Under the pieces are notes generated by a model. It worked only from the letters and a program-made list of their open reading frames with translations, was not told where the DNA came from and made no database searches. DNA of 5,555 bases from a virus. The translations under genes and the position numbers were made by a program. Position 1 is the stretch's first letter. Every line of letters starts with the position of its first letter. This document shows, in pieces, positions 1 to 5,555 of this stretch. The stretch lies in UHGV virus genome UHGV-0338177, one strand, 5' to 3'.

Positions 1-507
1 ATCGCCTATTTTCTTTAAAACATATTGAGAAACATAAGCCGCACACTTTCTCATACCACGAGAGTTCTCAACTTGTCTAAGTTTGATAAATCCATTATCC
101 CACTTTTGAGCAATAACATCACGGAAACTTTTATCAATGCCAAAAAGTAAAACATGATAATGAACGCGTTGTGTGCCGTTTTCGCCTCTCTCACCAGCAC
201 AGAAAAATTTAATTTTAGAATATCCAATAGAATCTAAGAACTTGCGAAAGCGCTTCATAAAAAGCTGAACATCAGAGTAATGAAATTCCATATCGTGATT
301 ATCTGATAATCGAGGCGCATAAGTTAAAGTAAGATGACAGACGGATGACCAATCGGTTGACTCCAAGGCCAAACGGTGAGACCATTGTCTCCCACGACGA
401 GCGCGACACAAAACACACTTATTGCAAGGGAAAATAGCATTATGAGCAACCGAAAAATAAGGCGATTGACAAATAAGCTTCTGAAGTTTGACAGGTGCGG
501 AGATCAT
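1..507 (-). CDS. VP4: Replication initiation protein VP4 (rolling-circle HUH endonuclease), N-terminal 169 codons. The ORF runs off the window at position 1 and probably continues at 5555 if the molecule is circular.
   Basis: My minus-strand translation from ATG 507..505 gives MISAPVKLQKLICQSPYFSVAHNAIFPCNKCVLCRARRGRQWSHRLALESTDWSSVCHLTLTYAPRLSDNHDMEFHYSDVQLFMKRFRKFLDSIGYSKIKFFCAGERGENGTQRVHYHVLLFGIDKSFRDVIAQKWDNGFIKLRQVENSRGMRKCAAYVSQYVLKKIGD. It contains RCR motif 1 (HLTLTY), motif 2 (HYHVLLF, the HUH motif) and motif 3 (YVSQYVLK, the same Y-x3-Y-x2-K spacing as the phiX174 gpA catalytic tyrosines YVAKYVNK). The N-terminal Cys-rich CxxC pattern and 'QLFMKRFRK' are typical of gokushovirus VP4. 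SD GGAGG lies 6 nt upstream (TAAGTGCGGAGGTTGTTGATG). The six-frame track missed this ORF because it has no stop inside the window. Confidence 0.9.
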   Translation of the reverse strand, partial: MISAPVKLQKLICQSPYFSVAHNAIFPCNKCVLCRARRGRQWSHRLALESTDWSSVCHLTLTYAPRLSDNHDMEFHYSDVQLFMKRFRKFLDSIGYSKIKFFCAGERGENGTQRVHYHVLLFGIDKSFRDVIAQKWDNGFIKLRQVENSRGMRKCAAYVSQYVLKKIGD

Positions 508-680
508 CAACAACCTCCGCACTTACCAAGGATAAGCCGAGCAAATGGAGAAGAAAAAATTACCGTCTTTTTCGACGAAGGCGTTTTTTTAATTTTCGTA
601 TAAGCCTTTTTATGTTTCGCCTCCTGCCACGTTTTCGAGTATGGTAAAAACCGAATGCCATTACGATTACCTCCTTTCAT
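507..680 (-). CDS. Small basic protein (57 aa). Putative DNA-binding/packaging protein, analogous to the gokushovirus ORF8/VP8 or the phiX J protein.
   Basis: ATG at 680..678 is preceded by GGAGA (GGAGAATAATTATG). Translation is MKGGNRNGIRFLPYSKTWQEAKHKKAYTKIKKTPSSKKTVIFSSPFARLILGKCGGC, which is Lys/Arg-rich. The stop TGA (509..507) overlaps the VP4 ATG (507..505) as TGATG, implying translational coupling. It starts 2 nt after the VP2 stop. Its position, immediately upstream of the Rep gene, matches the small basic DNA-binding gene of gokushoviruses. It falls below the length cutoff of the supplied ORF track. Confidence 0.5.
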   Translation of the reverse strand: MKGGNRNGIRFLPYSKTWQEAKHKKAYTKIKKTPSSKKTVIFSSPFARLILGKCGGC

Positions 681-1589: not shown

Positions 1590-2075
1590 TTATCTCCTAT
1601 TCTCTTTTTTACATTTTATAAATTTAGATATGTCGGTCCAGATGGCATTTTTAATTTTAAGACCTTTACCAGAAGTATTCCTCATAATCTCATCACGACG
1701 AACCGAACGAGACCGACATATCGACTTAGCAAACTTATCGAGTTTTTCACGCTCGGTAAGCTCTTGTGAAGTATTATACATTTTTTTGGTTAATGAAAAG
1801 CCTAAATTTAATTTTATTTTATCACGTAAAGAATTTAAGAACTTCGCGCGGCGTTTAGCCATATGATAAGAAACAAATTTACGAGGAGAGGAATGCCTAG
1901 TAACCTGTTGATAAAAATTTTTAAAAACAGGAGGAACTAAAAACATCTCAGGCTTTGATATTTTTCTCAAAGTCGTAATAGAACTTGAAACGATATTTTG
2001 GCGACTTCGTGGTTTTGAAGCACGCCTACGCCTCTTATTTCTAGCTTTTGAAAGGGATAAAAATCTTAAAACCAT
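1590..2075 (-). CDS. Highly basic 161-aa protein with a poly-Arg N-terminal region. Function unknown; candidate DNA-binding/condensing or scaffold-type virion protein.
   Basis: ATG 2075..2073 with SD AGGAG 5 nt upstream (CTAGGAGTTTCAATG). The protein MVLRFLSLSKARNKRRRRASKPRSRQN... is very rich in K/R throughout. It is tightly packed against VP2 (stop, 1 nt, start). I recognise no family motif. Confidence 0.55.
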   Translation of the reverse strand: MVLRFLSLSKARNKRRRRASKPRSRQNIVSSSITTLRKISKPEMFLVPPVFKNFYQQVTRHSSPRKFVSYHMAKRRAKFLNSLRDKIKLNLGFSLTKKMYNTSQELTEREKLDKFAKSICRSRSVRRDEIMRNTSGKGLKIKNAIWTDISKFIKCKKENRR

Positions 2076-2083
2076 TGAAACTC

Positions 2084-2101
2084 CTAGATGGTGTCATCTA
2101 G
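2084..2101. promoter_or_regulatory. Perfect 7-bp palindrome CTAGATG-GTGT-CATCTAG overlapping the SD of the 161-aa gene.
   Basis: Read directly: c2084..g2090 is the reverse complement of c2095..g2101, with a 4-nt loop. On the mRNA strand the stem ends ...CATCTAG|GAG, so the 3' arm covers the AG of the AGGAG SD. This fits a translational operator or protein-binding site. Confidence 0.4.
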
Positions 2102-2129
2102 CACATATTCATCAAGTCGGTGATATGTG

Positions 2130-2155
2130 CCGCAAAAATTTTACAATTTTTGCGG
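2130..2155. other. 11-bp perfect hairpin CCGCAAAAATT-TTAC-AATTTTTGCGG (GC clamp plus A5/T5 tract).
   Basis: Read directly: positions 2130..2140 are the reverse complement of 2145..2155, with a 4-nt loop. No flanking U-tract on either strand, so it is not a canonical intrinsic terminator. Confidence 0.6.
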
Positions 2156-2167
2156 AATAATGTCAAT

Positions 2168-2220
2168 GAAAAAACTTCGTTTTTTCTAAAAACTACCACA
2201 CCAAAACCGAGTTTTTAGAA
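2168..2220. other. Overlapping A/T-tract hairpins: GAAAAAAC-TTC-GTTTTTTC (2168..2186), and an 11-bp inverted repeat TTCTAAAAACT/AGTTTTTAGAA (2184..2194 and 2210..2220) with a 15-nt loop ACCACACCAAAACCG.
   Basis: Read directly; the arms are exact reverse complements. The two structures share bases, so they are alternative folds. Confidence 0.55.
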
Positions 2221-2278
2221 TTTCCAGCCTTAAAGGCGCTGAAATCGCAATAAATTTAAGGGGATTGTGTTACTTTAA

Positions 2279-2408
2279 GAGCGAGCCGCGTGCGTTGCAC
2301 ATAAAGCGTTCGTAAGGTGCGCTTTCAGCGCGATCCTTTCGCTCATCCAGCCGCGTCCTTGCGGCTGATTTGATGATGAGCGAACCCGTTTTTGTCAATA
2401 AAAACGGG
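2279..2408. other. GC-rich structured island in the intergenic region. It contains a small hairpin GCGCT-TTC-AGCGC (2319..2331), a compound hairpin (2338..2384) and an abutting hairpin CCCGTTTTT-GTCAAT-AAAAACGGG (2385..2408). In the compound hairpin the outer stem is TTCGCTCATC/GATGAGCGAA, the inner stem is CAGCCGC-GTCCTT-GCGGCTG, and there is a 7-nt bulge.
   Basis: Read directly. Hand-counted GC over about 110 nt (2279..2390) is roughly 59%, against a visibly AT-rich remainder of the genome. All stems are exact reverse complements. There are no flanking T-runs, so these are not classic terminators. The placement in the single large IGR parallels the complementary-strand origin / primosome-assembly hairpins of phiX174 and G4. 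Confidence 0.55.
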
Positions 2409-2409
2409 C

Positions 2410-2619
2410 TTATACGGGATTGTAGGGTAATTCTGGGAATAAAGAAGGTTGATCATCGATATATTCCCATTGAAATTTAAAAAAGAGTTCTTTGTCTGTT
2501 CGACAAGAACGAATAACTGCCTCAGTAAAAGAGGAATCTCCAGTCATCTCGTAAGGTTTCAACTTATAACTATGCCAGAGCTTACGCCAAGTCTTATAAT
2601 CTAAATCCCAAAGTATCAT
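2410..2619 (-). CDS. Hypothetical 69-aa Trp/Tyr/Phe-rich protein. The track gives an 89-aa version from an alternative GTG start at 2679.
   Basis: ATG 2619..2617 overlaps the TGA stop of the upstream 28-aa ORF as ATGA. Translation is MILWDLDYKTWRKLWHSYKLKPYEMTGDSSFTEAVIRSCRTDKELFFKFQWEYIDDQPSLFPELPYNPV. The stop TAA at 2412..2410 lies 1 nt before the 2408..2385 hairpin. I recognise no family. Confidence 0.4.
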   Translation of the reverse strand: MILWDLDYKTWRKLWHSYKLKPYEMTGDSSFTEAVIRSCRTDKELFFKFQWEYIDDQPSLFPELPYNPV

Positions 2620-3207: not shown

Positions 3208-5022
3208 TTATTTCAAAATATTTTTAGAACGCTTAGGAATTGGCCGATACGCAACAATGTTGTTTTGTAGCATTACGAGAAAAGCAGGTAAAGAAGAATC
3301 CGTAATAGCGAAAATGTCCTTACGAGGGTTCATTCTCATAAAAGAAGCATTTAAAACAGGAGCTTCAGCAAATTGTCGGCCCAAGTGCCAGAACGATAGG
3401 TCAGTTCTAAAATTTCCCGATAGTCTGCTCTCTTGGTGTCTATATTCGTTATAATTTCCATTGAGAGCATATCCAAATACCTTGTCCTTATTTGATTTGG
3501 TAGCATAAAGTTCTTGTTGAAAAATCTCTTGTGCACCGATGTTAGAAAATTCGTAAGTAAAATAGTCAAATCTACTTCGTTTAAGCCACGCTCTATCGAT
3601 ACCTTGAGTATAGATCGTTTCTGGCCGAATAGACGCGAGACCAATAATAATACCATGCTCAGGGCAAAAGTATTTAATGCGTCTCTGCCGAGCTTGTCCG
3701 ATTCCCATACCAGCCATACTTCCAAGTGGGGTTTGTCCTTGTGCGCCAGGACTAGTTTGTATGACCTCACTAATTTGTAATGGCGATTTATTGCCGCCGA
3801 GATACTCACTTTTGTTGAGTCGGCTATCACGAGGACGGACTCCGAACTCCATACGACAATAATCCTCATATTCTGCTCCATATTTCAAACTCCTTTCGTT
3901 GAAACGCTGATACGCAGAGGCAACACGTAAATCGCGTATATTGATAGCGCCCGCATTTTGATAATTTTGATTTATTGTGAATTCTAAATCATTTATGTTA
4001 AGGTTTTTTATTTGTGATACTTCTTTTACATAAGTAATTGTGTTGTTATTTCGCCTCATGCAGCTGGTGATTGGCGAAATATTTAAATCAATGTTACCTT
4101 TTAAGTATGGTGCGTTTGAATAATTCAACGGGTCTTTAAATTCGATTTTAGTAATAGGCACATAAAATTCAAAATTTGTATTTACAGGGCAAGTCGTAGA
4201 ATCTCCAAAATTTCCGTTTATTCCTCCTTCCGTTATTATTATTCTTATATATCCTTCCGTTATTCCCAACGCGATATTATTACTTATATCTATGCTTCTT
4301 ACACTCGTTTTCAGGCTATCTTGGCCTTTTTGAAGAGTGTTCGGCTCTAATATGATAAGTCCTAATTCTGTTGTCGTTGGTTTTATATTTGTCGGCGTTC
4401 CCGTTGTGTAGGTCGGTTTATAAATAGCGTATCCGCTGGTGTTTTGAGACGACGGAATTACTGGGACACTAACTTGAGCACCGCGTTGGGTAAATGGCTT
4501 CGCCTTTGTGAAGTAATCACGCTTCCAATGGACAGGGAGAAGATCCAAAGGCGTGGTAGTATCAACACCGTCAGAAGTCGAAAATTCAATATCTGCTTCA
4601 ATATCCTCAATTTTGTAATGGTCATTCCAAATTTTGCACATAGCACGAAAAGGCATAGCAGAAACTTCGATACCACCTTGTTTAATAGGAAAACCGAAAT
4701 AATCGGAAAGAGTGTTAGCTTCCCAACCATTTTCAGGCGATTTAACAACAGGATACGAAGGATTAGAAAGACCATCATCACCACCTGTAATAAATTCAGT
4801 CCAATTGTCCCATAATATGCGATACGGCACAAAATAGTATTGCGTAACCCAGTTTATCTGTGAAATCACAGGGGCAACCATAGGTTGTGCACGGAAAATA
4901 GCTTGGTTGGAGATACGAAAAATATCACCGGGCAAGCAATCCTGTATATAAAATGGGATAAGTTTGCCCATCTCCATGGTAGTATGATGTCTATGCGACA
5001 GATTAAATTTACTACGTTTCAT
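3208..5022 (-). CDS. VP1: Major capsid protein VP1 (F-protein family), 604 aa.
   Basis: The N-terminus MKRSKFNLSHRHHTTMEMGKLIPFYIQDCLPGDIF matches the conserved gokushovirus VP1 start (R-S-x-F-x-L-S-H ... M-G-x-L-x-P). The protein is long, with a Thr/Asn/Ile-rich hypervariable insertion (about residues 190-370) as in gokushovirus 'mushroom' loops. Excellent SD AAGGAGG 6 nt upstream of ATG 5022..5020. Confidence 0.95.
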   Translation of the reverse strand: MKRSKFNLSHRHHTTMEMGKLIPFYIQDCLPGDIFRISNQAIFRAQPMVAPVISQINWVTQYYFVPYRILWDNWTEFITGGDDGLSNPSYPVVKSPENGWEANTLSDYFGFPIKQGGIEVSAMPFRAMCKIWNDHYKIEDIEADIEFSTSDGVDTTTPLDLLPVHWKRDYFTKAKPFTQRGAQVSVPVIPSSQNTSGYAIYKPTYTTGTPTNIKPTTTELGLIILEPNTLQKGQDSLKTSVRSIDISNNIALGITEGYIRIIITEGGINGNFGDSTTCPVNTNFEFYVPITKIEFKDPLNYSNAPYLKGNIDLNISPITSCMRRNNNTITYVKEVSQIKNLNINDLEFTINQNYQNAGAINIRDLRVASAYQRFNERSLKYGAEYEDYCRMEFGVRPRDSRLNKSEYLGGNKSPLQISEVIQTSPGAQGQTPLGSMAGMGIGQARQRRIKYFCPEHGIIIGLASIRPETIYTQGIDRAWLKRSRFDYFTYEFSNIGAQEIFQQELYATKSNKDKVFGYALNGNYNEYRHQESRLSGNFRTDLSFWHLGRQFAEAPVLNASFMRMNPRKDIFAITDSSLPAFLVMLQNNIVAYRPIPKRSKNILK

Positions 5023-5048: not shown

Positions 5049-5555
5049 TTATAGCACTTTTTGGTAAATATTTGCAAAAAAACCACGATTATTTTTCATC
5101 TGTCTTAATTCAACTTGACGAGAATAAGTGTCAAACTTGGATTTACCGACAAATTCAACGGCACTTTGTATATGTCGCAAATAATCAAAATATAAAAAAT
5201 AATCAACAGTATTAGTCCAATCAATAACAGCTTCTGTTCCGTAGGGTCCAACTAACGAATACCTAGGATATAGAGGACGAAAAACGTTCGTTGAAAAAGT
5301 CTCATAAGTCGTTAAAATCTCCTCTAAAAACTCCTGTGTCTTAGCCTTCCAACGAGATTTCAACTCTTCGGAAATTCCTAATAGTTCAGCAATTTTCGTT
5401 TTAATATATCTATCAAGCCTCAAAACCTCACCTTGCCAAACAACTGGCTGAAAATCACCAAATTCTTGATAGTGAGCTAAAAAAGTTTCTTTAAATAATC
5501 GAATAGCAGCGCGAAGGCCTATGCCACGAGAACAGTGTTGAATTCCGTCTTTTCT
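5049..5555 (-). CDS. VP4: Replication initiation protein VP4, C-terminal 168 codons. The ORF is open to the window edge at 5555 and is in frame with the 1..507 part if the molecule is circular.
   Basis: My translation from 5555 is RKDGIQHCSRGIGLRAAIRLFKETFLAHYQEFGDFQPVVWQGEV(L)RLDRYIKTKIAELLGISEELKSRWKAKTQEFLEEILTTYETFSTNVFRPLYPRYSLVGPYGTEAVIDWTNTVDYFLYFDYLRHIQSAVEFVGKSKFDTYSRQVELRQMKNNRGFFANIYQKVL*. The track's 'M' at 5423 is actually a TTG codon; the frame stays open upstream to the window end. Codon phase at 5555 matches codon phase at 1. The 'SRGIG' segment after the catalytic Tyr motif is typical of microvirus Reps. Stop TAA at 5051..5049, 26 nt before the VP1 ATG. Confidence 0.7.
   Translation of the reverse strand, partial: RKDGIQHCSRGIGLRAAIRLFKETFLAHYQEFGDFQPVVWQGEVLRLDRYIKTKIAELLGISEELKSRWKAKTQEFLEEILTTYETFSTNVFRPLYPRYSLVGPYGTEAVIDWTNTVDYFLYFDYLRHIQSAVEFVGKSKFDTYSRQVELRQMKNNRGFFANIYQKVL

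Follow-up and report, generated by a model that had tools for sequence, protein, structure and literature searches.

A hairpin-dense intergenic island in the microvirus UHGV-0338177 as a candidate site of complementary-strand initiation

The only long intergenic region of the microvirus UHGV-0338177 opens with an island of closely packed hairpins that are non-coding, fold far beyond chance expectation and are maintained by compensatory substitutions in related genomes. We propose, with a probability that we put at somewhat under one half (about 45%), that this island is a DNA-level array of virion-strand hairpins that serves to initiate the complementary strand, much as the intergenic origins of G4 and phiX174 do. 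Elements of this kind are already known from these two phages, and the island is a reasonable candidate for the place where the host starts to copy the injected strand. The strand concerned, the action at the level of DNA and the priming function are what we infer here.

The window analyzed is the complete circular genome of 5,555 nt, in which every gene lies on the minus strand. The genome is contained in the source samples ERZ1024471, at about 39,000x, and ERZ1024441. In the Microviridae the virion strand is the sense strand, and the presence of a phiX-like ACTTGAT nick motif on the minus strand supports its identification as the virion strand. Because all the genes are on the minus strand, the relevant single strand, both mRNA and virion, is most probably complementary to the strand on which the original prediction was made. 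The sole intergenic region longer than 30 nt is a non-coding segment of 334 nt (2076-2409), and the island (2279-2408) constitutes its 5' half; in a circular genome with one-stranded genes and a single such region, non-coding cis functions are therefore to be expected there. The island adjoins the stop codon of a 69-aa ORF, the last gene of a Rep-VP1-154aa-28aa-69aa block, and its first hairpin begins 1 nt after that stop. The 69-aa ORF is conserved at the protein level in L005, L007, L010 and L015, and it is absent from L008, L075 and L001. The contrast between a GC-rich island and an AT-rich genome that was given in the original prediction is correct (54.6% for 2279-2408, 38.5% overall); its figure of 59% was too high, the best 100-nt window having 52%. 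A 42-aa ORF at 2270-2398 was rejected as coding, because 1-nt indels in L008 and L075 interrupt its frame and its start is unconserved. In this place annotation pipelines have left the DNA without a gene or have annotated a spurious ORF. The features of the region are collected in table 1.

Table 1. Features of the intergenic region of UHGV-0338177 and the genes that flank it, in the order of the minus strand
Feature	Position	Strand	Description
69-aa ORF	2410..2619	-	Upstream of the island; true start ATG at 2619, not GTG at 2679
H1	2385..2408	-	Arms 2385-2393 with 2400-2408; sense CCCGTTTTT-ATTGAC-AAAAACGGG; from folding
H2	2338..2384	-	Two-tier hairpin; abuts H1 with zero spacer; from folding
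H3	2319..2331	-	GCGC-TGAAA-GCGC, 5-nt loop; from folding and relatives
Motif GAACGCTTTAT	2301..2311	-	Unpaired, conserved, between H3 and H4; from sequence comparison
H4	2290..2300	-	Mini-hairpin GTGC-AAC-GCAC; from folding; fourth hairpin, missed in the original prediction
Motif GCGGCTCGCTC	2279..2289	-	Directly 3' of H4; from sequence comparison
Segment GCGATTTCAGCGC	2236..2248	-	Complementary to H3; alternative long-range helix closing a branched domain
H6 and H7	2168..2218	-	CTAAAAACT/AGTTTTTAG and GAAAAAAC-GAA-GTTTTTTC; AT-rich; end of the exchangeable cassette
Promoter	2138..2166	-	Sigma-70-type, TTGACA-17-TAAAAT, 11/12 matches; faces the 161-aa gene
H8	2130..2155	-	CCGCAAAAAT-TGTAAA-ATTTTTGCGG; spans promoter spacer and -10 element
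H9	2101..2130	-	GCACATAT/ATATGTGC; ACTTGATG (2110-2117) in the loop
H10	2084..2101	-	CTAGATG-ACAC-CATCTAG; adjoins the GGAG ribosome-binding site of the 161-aa gene on its 5' side
161-aa protein gene	1590..2075	-	Downstream; very K/R-rich product; sequence type tracks cassette type

The three abutting hairpins that had been described from the genome itself are all present, and every arm is perfectly complementary. When folded as DNA, the segment 2270-2420 reaches -39.9 kcal/mol on the plus strand (z = -5.7) and -37.5 kcal/mol on the minus strand (z = -4.9), and none of 200 dinucleotide shuffles attained either energy. The island was predicted to form the dominant secondary structures of the single-stranded genome, and this is borne out by folding the genome in sliding windows of 130 nt: the ten most stable windows all fall within 2026-2455, and the island reaches some -32 kcal/mol where the genome median is -10.5. 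For the entire intergenic region the folding z is -8.9. Sense and antisense energies are equal with either DNA or RNA parameters and reveal no thermodynamic strand asymmetry; hence the strand assignment rests on four wobble events and on the composition of the loops.

The most elaborate element is H2, whose outer stem TTCGCTCATC/GATGAGCGAA (2338-2347 with 2375-2384) and inner stem CAGCCGC/GCGGCTG (2348-2354 with 2361-2367, loop AAGGAC) are separated by a one-sided bulge of 7 nt on the 5' side, ATCAAAT, with a conserved core TCAAA. One pair of the inner stem is changed in a compensatory way, from C:G to A:T in L075, and a single A-to-G change in the outer stem of L008 yields a T·G pair on the sense strand only. 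In H1 there are three compensatory pairs relative to L075 (CCCCGATTT/AAATCGGGG) and the loop is variable. H3 was compared across relatives by structure-aware alignment, which restores the hairpin that a pairwise MAFFT alignment had made to appear broken by an indel artefact; its form in L008 and L075 is GCGC-GAAA-GCGC, containing the mini-hairpin octamer GCGAAAGC. The same two relatives have GTGC-GAA-GCAC at H4, of which the stem is invariant and the loop variable. In the minimum free energy fold of the whole intergenic region 2236-2248 is paired with 2319-2331, a complementarity also found in L008 and L075, and H6 and H7 each have one compensatory pair with respect to these two genomes.

Downstream of the exchangeable part there is a more constant segment. 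The promoter is conserved in L008 and in the closer relatives with a different cassette (type B, below). H8 undergoes a C:G to A:T covariation in both cassette types, and, with a 5' arm located before the expected start of transcription, it is a hairpin that the promoter's own transcript cannot contain; in L008 it has one terminal A·C mismatch, opposite in strand direction to the wobble changes. H9 has one compensatory pair, is conserved in all relatives and matches other GenBank microviruses; the ACTTGATG of its loop, which may be compared with AACTTG^ATATT at 4306 in the phiX174 viral-strand origin, is a putative Rep nick site and would thus mark the viral-strand origin. H10 covaries in L010. 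A weak promoter-like site on the plus strand (GTGATA-16-TACAAT, 2120-2147) is directed into the cassette.

Three sequences, UHGV-0338177 and the two diverged relatives L008 and L075, make up what we call type A; they carry the same cassette with varying loops and spacers. Conservation of compensatory pairs in homologous genomes had been set beforehand as the test by which the prediction would stand or fall, and such pairs occur: four inside the island, together with one G·T, and eight over the whole region. Between UHGV-0338177 and L008 only 1 of 68 stem positions differs, versus 17 of 62 unpaired positions (p = 1e-5), and all eight stem differences from L075 fall in four compensatory pairs. 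Over 10 helices 99.1% of cells are paired and 8 pairs are changed on both sides, a result matched by none of 500 shuffles. Where only one side of a stem has changed, the result is a G·T on the sense strand (one case in type A and three in type B). Particular loops, the bulge and the spacers are also conserved within a type over an overall DNA divergence of about 25%. As judged from this pattern of substitution, selection is acting on the pairing.

The closer VP1 relatives have, at the same site, the non-homologous type B cassette. This begins with a canonical terminator (a hairpin and T9) right after the stop, followed by five other covarying hairpins before the next promoter, and it also has an intrinsic terminator oriented for antisense transcripts. 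L012 has the same layout as type B, with a hairpin array beyond its terminator. At least four unrelated cassette types occupy this site in related genomes, and the boundaries of mosaicism coincide with the cassette edges. Some small elements nonetheless recur. A 13-mer, GAACGCTTTATGT, is identical in L012 despite its different cassette type; variants of GAACGCTTTAT exist in L008, L075 and type B, with a reverse-complement copy in L020 and L023; H4 has a covarying counterpart in type B (GCAC-GAA-GTGC or GCCC-GAA-GGGC); and GCGGCT comes after a GAA mini-hairpin in type A, type B and L012. These intergenic regions contain 13 C-G-closed GNA/GNNA mini-hairpins on the sense strand and none on the antisense strand, a density 8.6 times that of the rest of the genomes. 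One shared sub-element is inverted in L020, L023 and L009, which is awkward for a strictly strand-specific recognition of that motif.

Database searches revealed no copies of the island. There was no match to the island among GenBank phages by megablast of the whole genome or by blastn of the intergenic region (50,697 phage records), the blastn matches being limited to the conserved part with the putative viral origin and the ribosome-binding site in other microviruses; blastn against plasmids was likewise negative. In IMG/VR the clade is absent, with no close relative or copy detected by single-protein and profile scans with VP1 or by a pattern scan for hairpin 2. One exact pattern, the outer stem of H2, had 29 matches in GTDB genomes, none with the inner hairpin or the flanks, all in genomes of 54-74% GC, in Ilumatobacteraceae repeat arrays or coding DNA. 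As far as this one exact-pattern scan of bacterial genomes goes, an origin of the island as a host-derived insertion, the other outcome on which the original prediction had been staked, is not supported. The composite motif GAACGCTTTATG-N8-18-GCGGCT was discarded: its 19 matches in IMG/VR approximate the chance estimate and lie in what looks like unrelated coding-type sequence, mostly of larger phage contigs, with no hairpin. ARAGORN identified no tRNA or tmRNA. The best similarities to the dif sites of E. coli, B. subtilis and V. cholerae (17-18 of 28) equal those of shuffled controls, and none is in the island.

How might such a structure function? The island would be the first module of a hairpin-dense non-coding cassette, extending on the minus strand from 2409 to about 2167, bounded on one side by the last gene of the Rep-capsid block and on the other by the conserved segment with the promoter and putative viral origin. 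In the injected virion strand it could fold into the back-to-back and very stable H1, the bulged two-tier H2, H3 and H4. Because the single-stranded gaps between these hairpins are at most 18 nt, SSB would be unable to coat the region. The structured DNA, together with unpaired motifs (the TCAAA of the bulge, GAACGCTTTAT and GCGGCTC), would then be the place where complementary-strand synthesis is started by the host's priming machinery, be it primase, a PriA-type primosome or RNA polymerase. Such a system would operate in the manner of the intergenic origins of G4 and phiX174 and of the single-strand origins that rolling-circle plasmids carry, and the island may additionally form the 3' end of the upstream transcript. 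Action at the level of DNA is favored by the hairpin arrays that type B and L012 have beyond a terminator, by the covariation of H8 despite the position of its 5' arm and by the confinement of the GNA/GNNA mini-hairpins to the sense strand; C-G-closed mini-hairpins of this type mark ssDNA priming sites in G4, St-1, alpha3 and RSF1010 ssiA (PMC13037366). The real complementary-strand origin could, on the other hand, be H8-H10, which are conserved across all cassette types.

The resemblance is greatest to G4, whose complementary-strand origin, like those of St-1, alpha3 and phiK, is recognised directly by the DnaG primase. In G4 three hairpins follow gene F directly on its 3' side, with an annotated primer and origin, and in both cases there are abutting virion-strand hairpins, intergenic, just past the stop of a structural gene and without a U-tract; the fold of the G4 region (z = -4.7) is similar in significance to that of the island (z = -4.9 to -5.7). 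The octamer GCGAAAGC is located at the G4 primase site (PMC13037366, and the G4 sequence itself), where it forms the tip of hairpin I, and it recurs in H3 of L008 and L075. The mini-hairpin motif at the priming hairpin of such origins is of the GCGNNAGC type (PMC13037366), and the GCGC-TGAAA-GCGC of H3 in UHGV-0338177 does not fit it. Unlike G4, no CTG is found in the single-stranded flank 3' of H3 or H4; the host is probably not an enterobacterium and its primase may prefer another triplet. The minus-strand CTGs of the island are at 2326-2328, the stem-loop junction of H3, and at 2348-2350, in the stem of H2. The island also differs in having four hairpins, one of them bulged and two-tier, and blastn (50,697 phage records) revealed no sequence homology to it in the ori(-) of G4, St-1 or alpha3. 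The predicted complementary-strand origin is kept here as a candidate: its position agrees with that of the G4 and phiX174 origins and its pairs covary, and it lacks the CTG start site and the sequence homology.

With phiX174, whose origin shares its intergenic position with that of G4 and is non-homologous to it, a relation like that of types A and B, the resemblances are at the level of motifs, since there is no alignable similarity (blastn) between its F-G region and the island. The phiX174 pas, the PriA/n' site of this region, is a fork-like hairpin (PMC5778457), and the branched H2, in which a 7-nt one-sided bulge lies between stacked helices, is broadly of the same type. In phiX174 a GAA mini-hairpin precedes GCGG (GCGAAGC-GCGG), which is comparable with GTGCGAAGCAC-GCGG in L008 and L075. 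The closest look-alike of the phiX174 F-G hairpin AGCGGTAAAAAT/ATTTTTGCCGCT is H8, outside the island, which resembles it more than any island element does. The ssoA/U/T/W origins of rolling-circle plasmids, and the minus origin of filamentous phages primed by RNA polymerase, are likewise long (150-300 nt), strand-specific, hairpin-rich and non-coding, and they lie at a distance from the Rep nick site and pass as modules between otherwise related replicons, which agrees with the exchange of types A and B. The island differs from them in having no CS-6 (TAGCGW occurs only at 981, 3306 and 4425, and nowhere in 2076-2409), no plasmid match and no promoter-like duplex recognised in its hairpins. 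Among microviruses, the reekeekee- and roodoodooviruses have clade-conserved intergenic hairpins with compensatory substitutions that were proposed as negative-strand initiation sites (PMC9865509). Those belong to another clade, have other sequences and number one or two, in contrast to the approximately ten hairpins in 334 nt, and at least two interchangeable cassette types, described here.

The island occupies exactly the position of the type B terminator, a fact that speaks against the priming reading and makes a role at the 3' end of the transcript the natural and main alternative. It would then be a non-canonical terminator of the hairpin cluster kind, or a block to 3'-to-5' exonucleases that stabilizes the upstream message, and we regard this as rather unlikely, although far from negligible. 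Like intrinsic terminators, these GC-rich hairpins come right after a stop, and in type B a textbook one does stand at the equivalent place; the one-sided changes are G·U-compatible on the mRNA-sense strand, GAAA tetraloops are stable in RNA too, and clusters of hairpins without U-tracts have reportedly been put forward as terminators. However, no hairpin of the island is followed by a U-tract on either strand, as had been noted from the outset, and a terminator scan of 1900-2800 on both strands found no site, with L008 likewise negative. Four hairpins and conserved unpaired motifs over 130 nt exceed what protection of a 3' end needs. Because the arrays of type B and L012 lie beyond a terminator, termination does not explain them, and H8 covaries although the promoter's own transcript cannot form it. 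Moreover, the C-G-closed GAA triloop is a stability motif of DNA rather than RNA (PMC13037366). An RNA of another sort, either a cis-acting structured RNA that belongs to a known class or a small plus-strand RNA antisense to the genes, is the least probable of the explanations that we considered. The weak plus-strand promoter-like site and the antisense-oriented terminator of type B could be cited in its favor, but type A has no plus-strand terminator, the antisense -35 is unconserved, an antisense RNA would have A·C mismatches where the stems have changed on one side, and the purine-rich GNA/GNRA loops are confined to the sense strand. Rfam 15 gave no match for the genome in E-value mode or for five relatives in gathering mode, the best matches overlapping the island (E 8.8-9.1) being far below the gathering score, and thus a structured RNA of known family is not supported.

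It is unlikely that the region has no single specific function, being instead a palindrome-rich and recombination-prone spacer in which any stable structure suffices, or a small mobile or selfish insert. Hairpins or cruciforms might insulate two transcription units or pause replication, and the many unrelated cassettes at one site with mosaic boundaries at their edges, the equal folding energy of the two strands and the presence of one sub-element in both orientations would all suit such a spacer. Against it stand the compensatory stem changes within a type and the conservation there of loops, bulge and spacers; and there are no copies in the rest of the genome, in GTDB (by the one exact pattern), in plasmids or in GenBank phages, and no terminal repeats or target duplications at the cassette. 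Slightly less probable still is a binding platform for the basic 161-aa protein, for condensation, packaging or regulation, with cassette and protein exchanged as a matched pair. This protein forms two groups, with about 50% identity between them and 64-79% within the alpha group, to which P0122, P0123 and P0124 belong; alpha accompanies type A (UHGV-0338177, L008 and L075) and beta type B, and the VP1 phylogeny cuts across this division. Choosing a genome by its alpha homologue correctly predicted the third type A cassette, and the conserved unpaired TCAAA bulge, GAACGCTTTAT and GCGGCTC suggest sequence-specific contacts. Yet the loci are adjacent, so that their co-inheritance may be linkage in one recombination block, and the protein was assigned to no family or fold. 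K/R-rich proteins, phiX174 J for example, bind to DNA without specificity, and we know of no microvirus whose packaging needs a pac site apart from the origin; the packaging signal and attenuator of the original prediction found no specific support. A more speculative version, to which we give little credence, is that the cassettes are interchangeable specificity modules whose cognate 161-aa protein recognises its own hairpins on the single strand and either recruits priming or nucleates packaging. If true, a cognate pair of protein and hairpin origin swapped by recombination would be undescribed for the Microviridae.

Uncultured microviruses are among the most abundant phages of gut and environmental viromes. 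To our knowledge, the conversion of their ssDNA to duplex is essentially uncharted outside the phiX174 and G4 group. The present clade offers a compact test system: a single intergenic region, at least two non-homologous cassettes that share one site while their backgrounds are near-isogenic, clear covariation in several helices and DNA mini-hairpin motifs like that of the G4 primase site. If the cassettes are not origins, they still illustrate cleanly how a DNA or RNA structure under selection can escape annotation pipelines. If they are complementary-strand origins, their exchange would parallel that of the single-strand-origin cassettes in rolling-circle plasmids and might have a bearing on host range.

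The window comprises an entire circular microvirus genome of 5,555 nt, since the Rep open reading frame (ORF) runs across its ends and two ENA contigs identical to it carry a 55-nt terminal overlap. The minus strand, hereafter the sense strand, carries all of the genes and, apart from the 334-nt region preceding the gene of a 161-aa protein, every intergenic gap is shorter than 30 nt. The 69-aa ORF, which occurs in some relatives only and was overlooked by the gene callers in the source contigs, overlaps the 28-aa peptide gene by ATGA. Contigs L003 and L004 (ENA ERZ1024471 and ERZ1024441) represent the same genome from two samples, one at ~39,000x according to the contig name, an occurrence that points to either a viral bloom or virome enrichment. 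Another microvirus, the distant L013, came from the same sample.

Genes and intergenic elements, in window coordinates unless a contig is named
Feature	Position	Strand	Remarks
Rep	522..1 + 5555..5052	minus	Wrapping ORF
Major capsid VP1	5022..3208	minus	Pfam Phage_F, E = 9e-90
154-aa ORF	after VP1 in gene order	minus	
28-aa hydrophobic peptide gene	within 2616-2702	minus	MNKERIGLWIAALTGAVNAIWELIKGLI; conserved
69-aa ORF	2410-2619	minus	Real start ATG at 2619; GTG at 2679 in ORF list spurious
Intergenic region	2409..2076		334 nt, between 69-aa ORF and 161-aa gene
Hairpins H1, H2, H3	2385-2408, 2338-2384, 2319-2331		H2 two-tier
Mini-hairpin H4	2290-2300		GTGC-AAC-GCAC
Composite element	2279-2311; L012:4090-4135; L020 about 3560-3610; L009 intergenic region		
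Sigma-70-type promoter	within 2130-2166	minus	TTGACA-17-TAAAAT; spacer and -10 embedded in H8
Hairpin H8	within 2130-2166	minus	CCGCAAAAAT/ATTTTTGCGG; covarying, spans -10 element
Hairpin H9	2101-2130	minus	GCACATAT/ATATGTGC; loop contains ACTTGATG
Hairpin H10		minus	Adjoins ribosome-binding site of downstream gene
161-aa protein gene	1590-2075	minus	Very basic
Pilot protein VP2	after 161-aa gene	minus	PHROGs match
57-aa basic ORF	after VP2	minus	

The original prediction described three hairpins with perfectly complementary arms in a GC-rich island at 2279-2408, and these are present (H1 to H3), together with a fourth, H4, inside the same interval; its GC figure of 59% was too high, the measured content being 54.6% (genome 38.5%). 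Folded as DNA, 2270-2420 reaches -39.9 kcal/mol on the plus strand (z = -5.7) and -37.5 on the minus strand (z = -4.9), stabilities matched by 0/200 shuffles, and the sense strand of the entire intergenic region gives z = -8.9. When 130-nt segments were scanned along the genome, the ten most stable all fell within 2026-2455, the island lying at about -32 kcal/mol against a genome median of -10.5. The GCGC arms of H3 have an alternative partner at 2236-2248. The predicted lack of a U-tract also held, a terminator scan finding no terminator-like site on either strand; with the same negative result in the relative L008, an intrinsic terminator was rejected.

The clade was found neither among GenBank phages (best VP1 identity 44%) nor in IMG/VR; ENA, Logan and NCBI metagenome assemblies contain it, and 13 distinct genomes or contigs were retrieved in addition to the two identical contigs. 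In all retrieved relatives a long non-coding region occupies the corresponding position. Its final ~90 nt, with the promoter, H8, H9 and H10, are common to the window, L008, L075 and the type-B genomes, and partly to L012, whereas the 250 nt preceding the -35 form a cassette with unrelated versions: type A in the window, L008 and L075, type B in eight genomes, and further types in L009, in L012 and in L020/L023. Cassette identity to the window is only 16-35% in L001, whose VP1 is 85% identical, versus 73-86% in L008 (VP1 about 70%); cassette type is discordant with the VP1 phylogeny. It is concordant with the 161-aa protein, which, used as bait, recovered the third type-A genome as predicted. 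This protein (homologues P0121-P0137) is extremely K/R-rich, matches nothing in Pfam or PHROG, and forms two sequence groups that follow cassette type, unlike the VP1 phylogeny. A composite element (GAACGCTTTATG, a mini-hairpin and GCGGCTC) is common to otherwise unalignable cassette types, its order being permuted in L012, whereas L020, L023 and L009 have its reverse complement on their sense strand.

Compensatory pair conservation, whose absence had been set beforehand as the refuting test, is present in these relatives. Among the three type-A sequences, the window and L008 differ at 1/68 stem positions versus 17/62 in loops, bulges and spacers (Fisher p = 1e-5), the sole stem change giving T·G on the sense strand. 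Against L075 there are 8 stem differences, all within 4 compensatory pairs: three in H1 (CCCGTTTTT/AAAAACGGG versus CCCCGATTT/AAATCGGGG) and one in H2, within its inner stem (CAGCCGC/GCGGCTG versus CAGCAGC/GCTGCTG). The stems of H3 and H4 are kept while their loops vary (TGAAA versus GAAA; AAC versus GAA). Over ten intergenic helices, counted on the stems alone, concatenated through artificial linkers since loop indels had been misplaced by MAFFT, 99.1% of cells are paired and 8 pairs show double changes, a result equalled by 0/500 shuffles; register-shifted controls collapse. Type B adds 12 compensatory pairs across seven sequences. The structure of the island is real and selected, and it belongs to an exchangeable non-coding cassette.

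Other identities were rejected. One-nucleotide indels among type-A sequences rule out coding, no Rfam family matched, a search excluded a tRNA, motif searches excluded a dif-like site and ssoA, and no match occurred in plasmids. A host-derived insertion, the other refuting condition, was not detected when GTDB was scanned once, with the outer stem of H2 as the pattern; this matched unrelated high-GC repeats and coding DNA only. These matches (L046-L074, e.g. L065:3923-4086) include palindromic repeat arrays (…GCGATGAGCGA…GGGTTCGCTCATCGC…) in several Ilumatobacteraceae MAGs that look like CRISPR-like or REP-like repeats unrelated to this phage.

The Microviridae package the mRNA-sense strand and all genes here are on the minus strand, so the relevant single strand is the reverse complement of the one originally read. 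The phiX174-like nick motif ACTTGAT on the minus strand agrees with this assignment, which is nonetheless weak, strand and DNA-versus-RNA evidence being thinner than that for pairing. Where only one side of a stem has changed, the outcome on the sense strand is G·T in one case in type A and in three in type B, against one terminal A·C in the opposite direction (H8 of L008). Mini-hairpins closed by C-G with GNA or GNNA loops number 13 on the sense and 0 on the antisense strand of these intergenic regions (about six independent cases, many copies being inherited), their density being 8.6 times the value elsewhere in the genomes. Folding energy shows no strand difference.

In the shared segment, the H9 loop ACTTGATG is, by its resemblance to the phiX174 Rep cut site (AACTTG^ATATT; origin annotated at 4306), a likely viral-strand origin. 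It would be located not inside the Rep gene but in the 5' UTR of the gene for the 161-aa protein, and the H9 region is the only intergenic part with blastn matches in other GenBank microviruses. H8 is closely similar to the intergenic F-G hairpin of phiX174 (AGCGGTAAAAAT/ATTTTTGCCGCT) and could itself be a complementary-strand origin or single-strand promoter.

The best-supported mechanism, to which we give a probability of about 0.45, is a hairpin array on virion-strand DNA that would keep SSB off and serve as a site for complementary-strand initiation. The array may additionally supply the upstream mRNA with its 3' end; a role purely as such an RNA element is the main rival, and an unlikely one. 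Three observations speak for DNA as the level at which these structures act. In type B, as in L012 by sequence and fold, the stop codon is followed by a canonical terminator, and the other conserved hairpins come after it but ahead of the next promoter. Covariation of H8 is seen in both types, although its 5' arm precedes the expected transcription start. Mini-hairpins with a GAA triloop or the sequence GCGAAAGC are unusually stable in DNA and are found at the primase sites of G4, St-1 and alpha3 and also in ssiA of RSF1010 (PMC13037366).

The remaining rivals are lesser ones. A platform bound by the basic 161-aa protein would fit its co-inheritance with the cassette, and a non-specific structural spacer has to be set beside the compensatory pairs. 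An antisense RNA has to be set beside the sense-strand bias of the mini-hairpins. Type B has convergent intrinsic terminators (L005:3294-3420 and the equivalent region, seven loci aligned), the sense one directly after the stop codon and the other antisense-oriented, with A7-9 ahead of its hairpin on the sense strand; the latter hints at antisense transcription, or at primer RNA made by RNA polymerase entering from the promoter side.

Initiation of the complementary strand at the array has partial parallels. G4 has three hairpins from just after gene F, its annotated primer and origin adjoining hairpin I with the tip GCGAAAGC; L008 and L075 share this octamer, in H3, whereas the window is without it and has no CTG 3' of the hairpin and no sequence homology to G4. 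A fork-like hairpin forms the pas of phiX174 (PMC5778457); H2 is branched and bulged, but it is H8, outside the island, that most resembles the phiX174 hairpin. Conserved intergenic hairpins with compensatory changes in other uncultured microviruses have been proposed as minus-strand origins, their function being unproven (PMC9865509). Cassette exchange is reminiscent of rolling-circle plasmids, whose single-strand origins are exchangeable, and the complementary-strand origins of G4 and phiX174 are non-homologous although they occupy one intergenic position, as is the case here for the type A and type B cassettes. The microvirus genomes compared here are recombinant mosaics.
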